From Escherichia coli (GTDB taxonomy: Bacteria > Pseudomonadota > Gammaproteobacteria > Enterobacterales > Enterobacteriaceae), in the NCBI RefSeq assembly GCF_003334355.1, contig NZ_QOWP01000028.1: a stretch of DNA of 53,280 bases, one strand, 5' to 3'. Of this stretch, positions 78 through 8,700 are shown in pieces; positions within the stretch are counted from its first letter, which is position 1, and every line of letters begins with the position of its first letter. The translations under genes and the position numbers were made by a program. Below the pieces are notes generated by a model. It was given only the letters and a program-made list of their open reading frames with translations. It was not told where the DNA came from and did no database searches.

Positions 78-109
78 TACTCGTTGGAAATCAACACAGG
101 GGGCTGGGA

Positions 110-262
110 ATGCCGCAGAAATATAGATTACTTTCTTTAATAGTGATTTGTTTCACGCTTTTATTTTTCACCTGGATGATAAGAGATTCACTGTGTGAAT
201 TGCATATTAAACAGGAGAGTTATGAGCTGGCGGCGTTTTTAGCCTGCAAATTGAAAGAGTAA
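110..262 (+). CDS. hokA: Hok-family type I toxin HokA (50 aa small membrane peptide)
   Basis: ORF translation MPQKYRLLSLIVICFTLLFFTWMIRDSLCELHIKQESYELAAFLACKLKE is a Hok/Gef family peptide with a single TM helix and conserved Cys. ATG at 110 verified. A perfect 8-bp stem hairpin at 271-290 follows the stop. Confidence 0.9.
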   Translation: MPQKYRLLSLIVICFTLLFFTWMIRDSLCELHIKQESYELAAFLACKLKE

Positions 263-383
263 GAGTCTTCGGCGGGAAATTATTCCCGCCTTACTTACGG
301 CGTTGCGCATTCTCATTGCACCCACATTTATTCTTCACAAAAATAATAATAGATTTTATTACGCGATCGATTATTTATTTCCT

Positions 384-3491: not shown

Positions 3492-3501
3492 ATGAAAGGG
3501 A

Positions 3502-4161
3502 TTACAGCGGGCTTAAGGTAATTTCTACACGGCGGTTTTGCGCCTTACCTTCTGCGGTGCTGTTGCTGGCGATTGGGTTAGCCGGGCCAAGGCCCTGAGT
3601 ACGGATGCGGCTGGCGTCCACGCCCTGGGTGATCAACGCGCTGGCAACGGAATCCGCACGCTGCTGGGAGAGACGCATGTTCAGGTCGTGACCCCCCGTG
3701 CTGTCGGTATAACCAATCACGTTAACCGCCGTTTTCGGATACTCTTTCAGCACCATTGCCACGCCGGTCAGGGTGTTAGCGCCTGCCGGTTTCAGGGTCG
3801 CGCTGCTGCTGTCGAAGGTCACATTGTTCGGCATATTGAGGATAATGTTATCCCCGCTGCGGGTTACGCTAACACCAGTGCCGCGCATTTTGTCACGCAG
3901 CTTCGCTTCCTGCACATCCATGTAATAACCCACGCCGCCGCCCAGAGCTGCGCCTGCTGCTGCGCCAATCAGCGCGCCTTTACCGCGATCTTTCTTCGAA
4001 GAAGAGAGCGCACCAATACCCGCGCCCACGAGAGAGCCCAGACCTGCGCCGATAGCAGATTTGCCTGCTTCGCGTTCGCCGGTGTAAGGGTTAGTTGTGC
4101 AGCCAGATACCGCCAGAGCGCCACTCACTACGGCGGCAATAAGATAAACACGTTTCTTCAT
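3502..4161 (-). CDS. yiaD: OmpA-family outer-membrane lipoprotein YiaD
   Basis: 219 aa; lipobox (VSGC), Gly-rich region, C-terminal OmpA-like peptidoglycan-binding domain (…NRRVEITL…). Confidence 0.9.
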   Translation of the reverse strand: MKKRVYLIAAVVSGALAVSGCTTNPYTGEREAGKSAIGAGLGSLVGAGIGALSSSKKDRGKGALIGAAAGAALGGGVGYYMDVQEAKLRDKMRGTGVSVTRSGDNIILNMPNNVTFDSSSATLKPAGANTLTGVAMVLKEYPKTAVNVIGYTDSTGGHDLNMRLSQQRADSVASALITQGVDASRIRTQGLGPANPIASNSTAEGKAQNRRVEITLSPL

Positions 4162-4313
4162 TGTTAATCCTTAATAACCTTTTTATTCTTTGCCACGGGT
4201 TCCGTGGCGGGAGATTATGCCGCGTGAACATGAAGATTATTCCTGGGAATACTCGGAAATTTGTAAGTAATATTTAACTGCTCAATACATCTAACCTTTC
4301 AGGAGTCTTCGGT

Positions 4314-6647
4314 TTGGCCAACTCATCCTCACGATATTCCGTTCTGACTGCCGCCCACTGGGGGCCCATGCTGGTTGAAACCGACGGCGAAACCGTGTTT
4401 AGCTCGCGTGGCGCGTTAGCCACAGGAATGGAAAACTCCTTGCAGAGCGCGGTTCGCGACCAGGTTCACAGCAATACGCGGGTACGATTTCCAATGGTGC
4501 GCAAAGGCTTTCTCGCGTCACCGGAAAACCCGCAAGGCATTCGTGGGCAGGATGAATTTGTTCGCGTGAGTTGGGATGAGGCGCTGGATCTTATTCACCA
4601 ACAACATAAACGCATTCGTGAGGCTTATGGTCCGGCATCGATTTTTGCTGGTTCCTACGGCTGGCGTTCAAACGGCGTGCTGCATAAGGCCTCGACATTA
4701 TTACAACGCTATATGGCGCTGGCAGGCGGTTATACCGGGCATCTGGGGGATTATTCGACCGGCGCGGCACAGGCGATCATGCCGTATGTCGTGGGTGGTA
4801 GCGAAGTTTATCAACAGCAGACCAGTTGGCCGCTGGTGCTGGAACATAGCGATGTCGTGGTGCTGTGGAGTGCTAATCCACTCAATACGCTGAAAATTGC
4901 GTGGAATGCATCCGATGAGCAGGGGCTTTCTTACTTTTCTGCACTGCGTGACAGTGGGAAAAAGCTGATCTGCATTGATCCAATGCGATCGGAAACCGTC
5001 GATTTCTTTGGCGATAAAATGGAGTGGGTGGCACCGCACATGGGCACCGATGTTGCGCTGATGCTGGGGATCGCCCATACGCTGGTGGAAAATGGTTGGC
5101 ACGACGAAGCGTTTCTGGCGCGTTGCACCACAGGTTATGCCGTCTTCGCCTCTTATTTGCTGGGCGAGAGTGACGGAATAGCGAAAACCGCCGAATGGGC
5201 AGCAGAGATTTGTGGTGTTGGCGCAGCGAAAATCCGCGAGCTGGCGGCTATTTTCCACCAAAATACCACCATGCTGATGGCAGGCTGGGGAATGCAGCGC
5301 CAACAGTTTGGTGAGCAAAAACACTGGATGATCGTCACGCTGGCAGCAATGTTGGGGCAAATCGGCACACCCGGCGGCGGTTTTGGTCTTTCTTACCATT
5401 TTGCCAATGGTGGTAACCCCACGCGGCGTTCTGCGGTGCTCTCTTCCATGCAGGGCAGCTTGCCGGGTGGCTGCGATGCGGTAGATAAAATCCCTGTGGC
5501 CCGCATTGTTGAAGCACTGGAAAACCCTGGTGGCGCATATCAACACAACGGTATGGACCGACATTTTCCGGATATTCGTTTTATCTGGTGGGCGGGCGGT
5601 GCCAACTTTACTCATCATCAGGATACCAACCGCCTGATCCGTGCCTGGCAAAAACCGGAGCTGGTGGTGATCTCCGAATGTTTCTGGACGGCGGCGGCGA
5701 AACACGCGGATATCGTTCTGCCTGCGACCACCTCGTTTGAGCGTAATGATCTCACCATGACCGGCGATTACAGTAATCAGCATCTGGTGCCCATGAAGCA
5801 AGTGGTGCCGCCACGCTATGAAGCGCGTAATGATTTTGATGTTTTTGCCGAGTTAAGTGAACGCTGGGAGAAGGGCGGTTATGCACGTTTTACGGAAGGA
5901 AAAAGTGAGCTGCAATGGCTGGAAACGTTTTATAACGTTGCCCGACAGCGCGGGGCAAGCCAGCAGGTTGAATTGCCGCCATTTGCTGAGTTCTGGCAAG
6001 CCAACCAGTTAATTGAGATGCCGGAAAACCCGGACAGCGAGCGGTTTATTCGCTTCGCTGATTTTTGCCGCGATCCGCAGGCGCATCCATTAAAAACCGC
6101 CAGCGGTAAGATTGAAATCTTCTCGCAGCGTATTGCCGATTACGCTTATCCGGATTGCCCGGGGCATCCAATGTGGCTGGAGCCGGACGAATGGCAGGGC
6201 AATGCCGAACCAGAACAGTTGCAGGTACTTTCTGCCCATCCGGCGCACCGCCTGCACAGCCAGCTGAATTACAGTTCTCTGCGCGAATTGTACGCGGTAG
6301 CAAACCGTGAGCCTGTCACCATTCATCCTGACGATGCTCAGGCGCGCGGCATAACCGAAGGGGATATGGTGCGGGTGTGGAACTCCCGTGGGCAGATCCT
6401 TGCCGGAGCGGTCATTAGCGAGGGAATTAAACCTGGCGTGATTTGCATTCACGAAGGGGCATGGCCGGATCTGGATTTAACCGCTGACGGTATTTGTAAA
6501 AACGGCGCAGTGAACGTGCTGACCAAAGATCTCCCCAGCTCGCGGCTGGGGAATGGCTGTGCGGGTAATACGGCGCTGGCATGGCTGGAAAAATACAACG
6601 GTCCGGAACTGACACTTACAGCGTTTGAACCACCGGCCAGCTCATAA
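4314..6647 (+). CDS. bisC: Biotin sulfoxide reductase (molybdopterin oxidoreductase, cytoplasmic)
   Basis: 777-aa product of the DMSO reductase family with no signal peptide; TTG start at 4314 preceded by AGGAG (4301-4305). Confidence 0.93.
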
Positions 6648-7056
6648 TCCAGGTGGGTAGTTGGGTTTCATCCTGCCATGCGCAATCGACAATGTGAAAA
6701 CCCTGCGCACGGTAAAAATCTATCGCCGGTTGATTTTTTTGATAAACCTCCAGCATCAGATGGGGATAGCGCTGCTGCACATACTGCATCAGCGCCTTAC
6801 CAATACCGCGTCTGACGGCCTTCGGTGCGACAAACATTGCTGCCAGAAATCGGCCTTCCATAATGCTGACAAAACCGAGAAGCTTACCGTCCTCTTCCCA
6901 GACCCAGTTTTGCGCATTGGCAAGATAGGCATCCCGCACCAGCGGAATGCAGTCACGCCAGTAATTCGCTTTTATAAAGGGATGCCCCCAGGTTGTACTT
7001 TCCAGCCACAGTTCGAGGATCGCGGGGAGTTCTGAACGTTGCGCTTCCCGAATCAT
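6616..7056 (-). CDS. yiaC: GNAT-family N-acetyltransferase YiaC
   Basis: 146-aa product with acetyl-CoA binding motif (…RRGIGKALM…); its 3' end overlaps the bisC 3' end by 32 bp on the opposite strand. Confidence 0.9.
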
Positions 7057-7616
7057 GGTTTATTTCCCGGATAGCAACAGCAGCCAACCACATGATCATT
7101 CACCAGCCCACATGCCTGCATAAAGGAGTAACAGATTGTGGTGCCGACAAACTTAAAACCACGTTTTTTCAGTGCCTTAGATAGGGCGTCGGAGGCGGAC
7201 GTAGATGTGGGAATTTCGCTCAACGTTGTGGCTTGTGTCACCTGTGGCTGATGATTTACAAACGACCAGACAAAGTCGGCAAACGGTTCGCCGTTCTGTT
7301 CCATTTGCAGGTACGCCCGCGCATTACCAATAATTGCCTGAATTTTCCCTCGATGGCGGATAATCCCGGCGTCCTGTACCAGTCTTTCGACATCCTCTTC
7401 CTGCATTGCGGCAACCTTCACCGGATCGAACTGATGAAAGCAGGCGCGATAGTTTTCGCGTTTTTTGAGGACGGTGATCCACGATAACCCAGCCTGCTGC
7501 CCTTCAAGGCAGATCATTTCGAACAGTTTTTTACTGTCAGTTTCAGGCACGCCCCACTCATTATCATGGTAGGCAATATAAAGCGGGTCCTGACTCACCC
7601 AGCCGCAACGTTCCAT
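7053..7616 (-). CDS. tag: DNA-3-methyladenine glycosylase I
   Basis: 187-aa product MERCGWVSQDPLYIAYHDNEWGVPE…; start ATG at 7614-7616 verified. Stop overlaps the yiaC start (ATGA), so the two are probably co-transcribed. Confidence 0.95.
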   Translation of the reverse strand: MERCGWVSQDPLYIAYHDNEWGVPETDSKKLFEMICLEGQQAGLSWITVLKKRENYRACFHQFDPVKVAAMQEEDVERLVQDAGIIRHRGKIQAIIGNARAYLQMEQNGEPFADFVWSFVNHQPQVTQATTLSEIPTSTSASDALSKALKKRGFKFVGTTICYSFMQACGLVNDHVVGCCCYPGNKP

Positions 7617-7773
7617 ACTTTCCCTCGCTATGTACCCGATCGTAAAAATTTCAGCCGCTTTTCTTGACGCATCGGTGAAAAAGTCAATATTTAATACAGG
7701 GCTACTATGCCCGATATCCTTCATACAATGACAATAATATTGCCGAATTCGGCTCTTCCCTGGAGTCGTGTTA

Positions 7774-8472
7774 ATGATCATAAAAAAAAGCGGTGGTCGC
7801 TGGCAGCTAAGCCTGCTGGCGAGCGTGGTAATCAGTGCCTTTTTTCTCAACACAGCTTACGCCTGGCAACAAGAATATATCGTTGATACGCAACCCGGAC
7901 TTTCCACAGAGCGTTACACCTGGGATAGTGATCATCAACCTGATTACAACGATATTTTGTCGCAACGTATTCAAAGTAGCCAAAGGGCGCTGGGACTGGA
8001 AGTCAATCTGGCGGAAGAAACCCCTGTGGATGTGACCAGCAGTATGAGTATGGGCTGGAATTTTCCTTTATATGAACAGGTTACAACCGGCCCGGTCGCG
8101 GCATTACATTACGATGGCACAACCACCTCGATGTATAACGAGTTTGGCGACAGTACTACCACGCTGACCGATCCGTTATGGCATGCCAGCGTGAGTACCT
8201 TAGGCTGGCGTGTTGACTCCCGGCTTGGCGATCTCCGACCCTGGGCGCAAATCAGCTATAACCAGCAATTTGGCGAGAATATCTGGAAGGCGCAATCAGG
8301 CCTGAGCCGGATGACGGCGACAAACCAGAACGGCAACTGGCTGGATGTCACCGTAGGCGCTGATATGTTGCTCAATCAAAATATTGCCGCCTATGCCGCG
8401 CTAACTCAGGCAGAAAATACCACTAATAATAGCGACTATCTGTATACGATGGGGGTTAGCGCCAGATTTTAA
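7774..8472 (+). CDS. yhjY: Small outer-membrane beta-barrel protein YhjY (autotransporter beta-domain-like)
   Basis: 232 aa; signal peptide ending AYA, alternating hydrophobic beta-strand pattern, C-terminal Phe (…GVSARF). Confidence 0.85.
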   Translation: MIIKKSGGRWQLSLLASVVISAFFLNTAYAWQQEYIVDTQPGLSTERYTWDSDHQPDYNDILSQRIQSSQRALGLEVNLAEETPVDVTSSMSMGWNFPLYEQVTTGPVAALHYDGTTTSMYNEFGDSTTTLTDPLWHASVSTLGWRVDSRLGDLRPWAQISYNQQFGENIWKAQSGLSRMTATNQNGNWLDVTVGADMLLNQNIAAYAALTQAENTTNNSDYLYTMGVSARF

Positions 8473-8586
8473 CGTAACAGTCACAATTGAAACCATTAAA
8501 TAACAATAGTTGTGGCGATAGTGGGTGCTAACTTACCAAATAATAAATTTGGTGAATAATTGTCGCGTCATTCATTCCTGAACTAA

Positions 8587-8617
8587 GGCATTTCATTCCG
8601 TTCTGATGGCATTTCAT
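8587..8617 (+). promoter_or_regulatory. YpdB (LytTR response regulator) binding site in the yhjX promoter
   Basis: Two exact copies of GGCATTTCAT (8587-8596 and 8608-8617) separated by an 11-bp spacer, about 85 bp upstream of the yhjX ATG; matches the published YpdB motif. Confidence 0.65.
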
Positions 8618-8700
8618 GCCGTTTTTCCCCAGGCATAAAGTGCACTTCGTTATGGTTGTCGGCAGAGATTTTTCCTTTTTATTACTGCAGGAATACTGCC

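Follow-up and report, generated by a model that had tools for sequence, protein, structure and literature searches.

Convergent genes that share their 3' ends within the coding sequences have been catalogued in prokaryotes (PMC2174442, PMC2478687). In E. coli, 58 convergent coding-sequence overlaps were counted (PMC2174442), and overlaps of this kind make up about 7% of those between well-characterised genes (PMC2478687). The commonest phase for convergent overlaps of at least 5 nt is (123:132), at 49% (PMC2174442). Those longer than 60 bp that were judged possibly real are conserved only in very close species (PMC2478687). Two other groups of described systems concern the transcripts of convergent genes. 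Convergent excludons (PMC12288877) are recognised by overlapping transcripts, the class being otherwise defined by mutually exclusive expression. In Rho-terminated antisense read-through, a bicyclomycin-sensitive region lies antisense to a convergent gene (PMC7815308, PMC6061677), and it has been described that stem-loops upstream of rut sites block exonucleases in Rho-terminated mRNAs (Dar and Sorek, PMC6061677).

The window, by which we mean the whole stretch of E. coli chromosome analysed (53,280 nucleotides), holds a pair that can be compared with all three. bisC, coding for biotin sulfoxide reductase, occupies 4314-6647 on the plus strand (777 aa, TTG start, TAA stop at 6645-6647), as supported by the open reading frame list, RefSeq and homologue alignment. 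On the minus strand, yiaC (6616-7056; 146 aa; TAA stop at 6618-6616) codes for a GNAT protein assigned from the open reading frame list, RefSeq, Pfam and its match to YjaB; the function of YiaC as a lysine acetyltransferase and lactylase has been described (PMC6199490, PMC9636275). Its upstream partner tag, the gene for 3-methyladenine DNA glycosylase I, lies at 7053-7616 on the same strand (RefSeq, PMC6199490). The original prediction held that the last 10 codons of bisC and of yiaC are encoded on opposite strands of the same 32 bp and that tag and yiaC form an operon. Both statements were borne out. The open reading frame list and the RefSeq annotations of strains 214-4 and MG1655 all give the convergent 32-bp overlap of the 3' ends, and the figure of 10 codons is near enough, as the shared stretch takes in, for each gene, the stop, nine complete codons and two bases from the tenth. 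In the RefSeq annotation tag ends 4 nt inside the beginning of yiaC, and the same 4-nt overlap, together with the polycistronic nature of the tag-yiaC operon, has been reported (PMC6199490).

The dual-coding stretch (6616-6647, both strands, 32 bp), supported by the sequence and by the per-site variation in 79 species, encodes BisC from part of L768 to S777 plus the stop on the plus strand, and YiaC from part of I137 to L146 plus the stop on the minus strand. In strain 214-4 the 901 nt tested are 100% identical to the window, and RefSeq gives the same coordinates for bisC and yiaC. The K-12 MG1655 annotation, with yiaC at 3713652..3714092 and bisC at 3714061..3716394, contains the same 32-bp overlap, and the region is present at a coverage of at least 80% in 5420 of 5426 complete E. 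coli genomes. The overlap is thus already part of the standard annotation, and it is known both in kind and in this instance. Seven convergent gene pairs occur in the window, and a second one, hokA/ysaE, likewise overlaps, by 24 bp.

The bisC-yiaC pair resembles the catalogued convergent overlaps (PMC2174442, PMC2478687) in its shared 3' ends, its length below 60 bp, its phase and its conservation across species. There is no qualitative difference, although bisC-yiaC is kept more widely, across a family and in 79 species, than most of the possibly real overlaps of more than 60 bp. It is one of the roughly 58 pairs of this kind counted in E. coli, and by its sequence features it stands among the conserved convergent overlaps in every structural respect.

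One genome per species was scanned, and 80 loci of Enterobacteriaceae were returned, from genera that include Escherichia, Salmonella, Citrobacter, Klebsiella, Enterobacter, Raoultella, Kosakonia, Kluyvera, Mangrovibacter, Atlantibacter and Siccibacter. bisC was convergent to yiaC and overlapped it in all 79 loci that carry both genes. The overlap measured 32 bp in 42 species, 38 bp in 32 and 23 bp in 5, and not one of the 79 loci had an indel within it. The bisC stop holds a fixed position relative to yiaC throughout (79/79), and the yiaC stop takes three positions. Alternative stops in orthologues, which the original prediction had raised as something to look for, do therefore exist, as yiaC can end earlier (23 bp) or later (38 bp), and none of them separates the genes. 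A chance extension of an open reading frame was ruled out as an origin by the same loci, all 79 of which overlap at 23, 32 or 38 bp. The sole exception among the 80 was Intestinirhabdus alba, where bisC has been lost and yiaD follows yiaC; here yiaC keeps the same tail (WQADQTP) and the same stop, and just downstream a piece of the 3' end of bisC is left over. Outside the family, three outgroup look-ups gave tag-yiaC pairs without bisC downstream, with YiaC proteins 41-45% identical. These retain the core motif [IV]MxW/YQ, beyond which their tails, 6-10 residues long, are unrelated.

The two reading frames meet so that bisC codon positions 1/2/3 are opposite yiaC positions 1/3/2, i.e. (123:132) in the notation of PMC2174442. 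Third codon positions of either gene are thereby set against second positions of its partner; therefore, nearly every base change alters one of the two proteins, and for this reason the arrangement has stayed fixed. The effect can be read from the mean per-site entropy at third codon positions in the 79 species, with the flanking 150 nt taken as the outside. For yiaC this value was 1.15 bits outside the overlap versus 0.17-0.21 inside, and for bisC 1.19 bits outside versus 0.46-0.55 inside. At the protein level, the BisC residues T769-A770-F771-D772-P773-P774 are almost invariant, with A770, F771, P773 and P774 fully invariant in the 79 species. Opposite T769-P774, residues 141-146 of YiaC are limited to Q/P/R/S, A/V, D, Q/R, T/M and P/L/R, respectively, and vary only as far as the third positions of bisC permit. 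In turn, M138 and W140 of YiaC are invariant, and the BisC residues 775-777 opposite them vary as A/T/P, S/N/T and S/A/P. These patterns show a split constraint, in which BisC T769-P774 fixes the distal tail of YiaC, and M138 and W140 of YiaC limit the last three residues of BisC. Both C-termini are constrained parts of their proteins, and the least constrained extreme terminus of each overlies a more constrained part of the partner. This layout alone is enough to explain the stability of the overlap. The locus can serve as a clean, family-wide example of dual coding that freezes third positions and protein tails.

Since there is no intergenic DNA, each full-length mRNA carries the complement of the last 32 nt of its partner. 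The original prediction had stated that the convergent transcripts must overlap and had left to strand-specific RNA data how far each extends into the other gene. Published data support the statement by three routes (an excludon list, a Rho region antisense to bisC and an RNase III duplex) and also answer the question of extent for tag-yiaC, whose RNA reads about 252 nt past its stop into bisC. yiaC-bisC is among the 165 convergent excludons found with ExcludonFinder in at least 50% of 58 MG1655 transcriptomes (PMC12288877). Rho-dependent termination has been mapped on the sense strand of yiaC, in a region that is classed as bisC antisense and peaks at MG1655 3714344 (PMC7815308 Supplementary file 2), with a Rho score of 7.3 and p = 5.5e-14; when bicyclomycin is present, downstream/upstream coverage goes from 23/90 to 112/60 (PMC7815308). 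This position corresponds to window position 6364, 252 nt past the yiaC stop, by a colinear transfer of coordinates from MG1655 (2743 nt versus 2743 nt, 98.0% identity). For RNA antisense to yiaC or tag, neither a Rho region nor a Term-seq end is reported in PMC7815308, and no discrete 3' end is entered in its curated Term-seq list between MG1655 3710464 and 3717247.

The RNA that is read past the yiaC stop forms an untranslated, C-rich and G-poor tract antisense to bisC (6316-6615, minus strand), within which the Rho peak at 6364 lies. Over these roughly 300 nt the C/G ratio is 1.15-1.94 in every 80-nt window, with C at 0.29-0.40 and G at 0.19-0.26, and in the 252 nt between the yiaC stop and the peak C amounts to 0.33 and G to 0.23. 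C-rich and G-poor RNA upstream of a termination zone is what one would expect where Rho loads. The locus is thus like the Rho-terminated antisense read-through described previously (PMC7815308, PMC6061677) in its bicyclomycin-sensitive region antisense to a convergent gene, in its untranslated C-rich/G-poor RNA, and in a stable hairpin without U-tract upstream of the C-rich tract. It differs in that this hairpin, taken up below, is absent in about 30 of the 79 species and has no listed 3' end.

Pairing of the two RNAs is on record as well. A perfectly paired 21-nt duplex with 2-nt overhangs, retained by p19, is listed in PMC7373196 (Table S3, row 'bisC yiaC') and spans window positions 6628-6650, with the plus strand at 6630-6650 and the minus strand at 6628-6648. 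Its strands, CCACCGGCCAGCUCAUAAUCC and AUUAUGAGCUGGCCGGUGGUU, are represented by 90 and 184 reads, both p19-captured (PMC7373196 Table S3), and both map exactly to the window, where they lie in the overlap and extend over the bisC stop. These low read numbers (about 1-2 RPM) were obtained from cells with ectopic expression of p19. Published data confirm that bisC and yiaC transcripts coexist and pair and that RNase III cuts the duplex. The locus is in this sense a documented site of convergent pairing, and could be a simple test case for asking if excludons regulate anything at all.

We consider, with a probability of roughly 0.8, that the locus is an old tail-to-tail overlap of two unrelated coding genes, accounted for by gene packing, dual-coding constraint, clean-up of read-through by Rho and incidental cleavage of the duplex. 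The tag-yiaC pair would be the older one, since more distant relatives have it with no bisC beside it, and bisC would have come to adjoin yiaC convergently on the line of descent to the Enterobacteriaceae. The three look-ups in outgroups are compatible both with an insertion of bisC in the ancestor of the family and with its loss from the outgroups. With no intergenic DNA left, there is no space between the genes in which either could have its own terminator. The RNA of tag-yiaC runs past its stop, untranslated and antisense to bisC, until Rho stops it about 250 nt downstream; the bisC transcript must read into yiaC likewise, to an end point that we can only infer. Over the shared region the two RNAs pair, and RNase III cuts the duplex. 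Because both genes are weakly expressed, the overlap has most likely been tolerated as a by-product of gene packing rather than serving as a dedicated switch for regulation. The by-product view rests on an absence of evidence for regulation, and the perfect conservation is equally compatible with a selected coupling.

An unlikely alternative is that the overlap has been kept as a useful convergent excludon, in which a rise of tag-yiaC transcription would lower bisC expression and vice versa, owing to collisions of the polymerases and to cleavage of the mRNA duplex by RNase III. We counted in favour of this alternative that oxidised biotin and methionine are repaired by BisC. YiaC is upregulated under oxidative stress (PMC6199490), and the place of the pair on the published list, the RNase III duplex within the overlap and the retention of the overlap in 79 of 79 species with both genes point the same way. 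The locus is indeed like the convergent excludons of PMC12288877 in being listed, in its overlapping transcripts and in its RNase III-cut duplex, and published data place it in the class as far as overlap of transcripts is concerned. However, the transcript overlap is here forced by the coding overlap and not by long UTRs, and any convergent pair with overlapping coding sequences must land on a list of transcript overlaps. The conservation, in turn, is fully explained by the dual-coding constraint acting on two constrained C-termini. Compared with 5' overlaps, 3' overlaps showed an about 38-fold lower density of dsRNA in the p19 study (PMC7373196), and the bisC-yiaC duplex is of low abundance. 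In Intestinirhabdus alba, moreover, bisC was lost and yiaC shows no visible change. A literature search on bisC and yiaC found no report of reciprocal or mutually exclusive expression for the pair; the original prediction had gone no further than to see scope for antisense interference.

Quite unlikely, in our view, is that tag-yiaC has an intrinsic terminator hidden within bisC, so that the transcript overlap would be short (about 90 nt) and defined instead of diffuse and Rho-dependent. The only candidate is a G+C-rich hairpin with a 9-bp stem, UUCCCCAGC-CGCGA-GCUGGGGAG, at 6531-6553 on the minus strand, which came up as a match in a scan for terminator-like sites. In the tag-yiaC read-through RNA it lies 63-85 nt past the yiaC stop, and in BisC it falls within the codons for LPSSRLGN; six of the nine pairs of its stem are G-C. 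A predicted Rho-independent terminator has been found in 20% of the E. coli genes with convergent overlaps (PMC2174442), and the hairpin is stable in many species (-16 to -20 kcal/mol), with some two-sided changes that preserve the pairing. Against this, the U-tract that follows is poor (AUCUUUGGUC), and the scan returned seven sites compared to 5.0 +/- 2.1 in shuffles, i.e. no excess. A hairpin of -14 kcal/mol or better was present in about 49 of the 79 species and lost in about 30. The two-sided cells that preserve pairing numbered 14 versus 3.5 in shuffles, but controls with slid partners reached similar counts; RNAalifold gave no consensus pairs downstream of the yiaC stop in 80 sequences, and the 116-nt region of the hairpin folded no better than shuffles (z = -0.30). 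Neither does a Term-seq 3' end fall at the hairpin, and the bicyclomycin-sensitive region is located further downstream (PMC7815308). The combination of a compensatory structure with a mapped 3' end was accordingly not found in the 79 species and the data of PMC7815308.

On the bisC side, the scan found no site like an intrinsic terminator on the plus strand from the bisC stop to 8700, and RNAalifold downstream of the bisC stop gave only a weak pairing of an A-tract with a U-tract (-2.6 kcal/mol), which arises because the codons are conserved. No Rfam family matched the region 3500-9000 at E <= 1. The hairpin at 6531-6553 can be regarded as a candidate for either a stem-loop that protects the 3' end or a weak intrinsic terminator, and it might fit the exonuclease-protecting stem-loop of a Rho-terminated RNA better than an intrinsic terminator. 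Very unlikely is a reading that goes one step further, in which the overlap fixed in the Enterobacteriaceae would be a selected cis-antisense device, with the protein acyltransferase YiaC and the DNA-repair gene tag expressed inversely to the sulfoxide-repair enzyme BisC, and with the palindromic hairpin at 6531-6553 setting the extent to which the tag-yiaC RNA persists as antisense.

The original prediction had noted that a misassigned stop codon in either gene would remove the overlap. Neither stop proved to be misplaced, as the C-termini of homologues and the length of YiaC agree with the annotation. The alignment of BisC with DMSO and TMAO reductases of solved structure covers about residue 7 to residues 774-775 of 777, with E values down to 2e-278. 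The alignments with Rhodobacter DMSO reductase and with TorZ/TorA stop 2-5 residues short of the C-termini of these homologues, with the exception of the TorA entry 9h4t, where the alignment ends 16 residues before the C-terminus; for the DMSO reductases it reaches within 2-3 residues of the C-terminus on both sides. The overlapped tail of BisC (13 residues) aligns to GPAVTLTGFVAPK of the Rhodobacter enzyme. YiaC, with 146 aa, matches its paralogue YjaB (2KCW, 147 aa) with an E value of 4.6e-13, and 792 representatives were found at E <= 1e-10, the homologues carrying GNAT Pfam domains. Dozens of homologues of about 140-150 aa, with 35-45% identity, are aligned through YiaC residue 140-141, and therefore the core of the protein already extends into the overlap, the W140 codon being located at 6637-6639. 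Neither gene is extended at its 3' end relative to its orthologues, each stop lying inside the coding sequence of the partner. That one stop is misassigned or one tail untranslated is extremely improbable and already refuted at the level of sequence: although many convergent overlaps in annotations are errors of 3'-end extension, this one measures 32 bp and not above 60, the same stops close both open frames in 79 species, both tails are conserved at the protein level, the match of BisC to solved homologues runs to their C-termini, and the core of YiaC (up to W140) extends into the overlap.

The meaning of the overlap is foremost practical, and it opens no new question: deleting or tagging the 3' end of bisC or yiaC alters the other gene. 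A standard Keio-type deletion is said to retain only the last 21 nt of its target. If this is true, a ΔyiaC strain loses the last three codons of bisC together with its stop, and a ΔbisC strain loses the last three codons of yiaC together with its stop. The work on acetylation made use of the Keio ΔyiaC strain JW3519 (PMC6199490). In the engineered strain BE104, which carries a custom deletion of bisC, about 40 nt were deliberately kept and yiaC is intact.

Besides the RNase III duplex that maps to the bisC-yiaC overlap (6628-6650), another p19-captured duplex, labelled bisC in Table S3 of PMC7373196, was placed at 5519-5541, inside bisC. This position precedes the bisC stop codon by 1.1 kb and is far past the published Rho termination peak at 6364, which is antisense to bisC. 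Therefore, antisense RNA is present deep within bisC, well beyond the Rho peak, and its source could be either read-through or an antisense promoter within the gene. Two more rows of the same table also carry the label 'bisC'.

When bisC was compared with its K-12 counterpart in bins of 200 nt, the bin at 6314-6513 showed an identity of just 92%, against 97-100% in the adjacent bins. A cluster of amino acid differences from K-12 falls within this bin, where K-12 reads ARGIQDGDTVRLWNARGQ and the window differs. The bin looks like a small patch of recombination or divergence. The published Rho termination peak (6364; PMC7815308) falls within it. The bisC start codon at 4314 is TTG, on which the ORF list and the RefSeq annotation concur.

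In E. coli BE104 (NZ_CP040643.1, locus L083, 2416-2500), an engineered bisC deletion with an FRT scar retains approximately 150 nt of the 5' end and approximately 40 nt of the 3' end of bisC, and, because the latter was retained, the stop codon and tail of yiaC are intact. The loss in Intestinirhabdus alba (locus L068, 4380-4716) is natural: bisC is gone, and the genes immediately after yiaC are yiaD and ghrB. Despite this loss, the tail and stop codon of yiaC are unchanged; just downstream of the gene lie a short residual piece of the bisC 3' end and a GGTGCGC/GCGCACC hairpin. Outside the Enterobacteriaceae, in tag-yiaC loci L085/L086 and L088/L089, whose YiaC proteins are 41-45% identical, yiaC is separated from the next gene, which is either ghrB-like or GDT1 plus a yiaD-like gene, by 450-550 nt of non-coding DNA. 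Only one terminator-like site, a weak one, was found in these gaps.

Another convergent overlap of coding sequences is annotated in the window by RefSeq, where hokA (108-260, plus strand) and the small gene ysaE (237-308, minus strand) have 24 bp of their 3' ends in common (237-260); the pair ysaE-hokA is included in the published list of convergent excludons of K-12 MG1655 (PMC12288877). At 20453-22009, the same annotation has a tandem array of four type I toxin genes of the Ldr family with a spacing of approximately 483 bp; three of them encode one and the same protein, WP_001295224.1, and ldrD comes after these.
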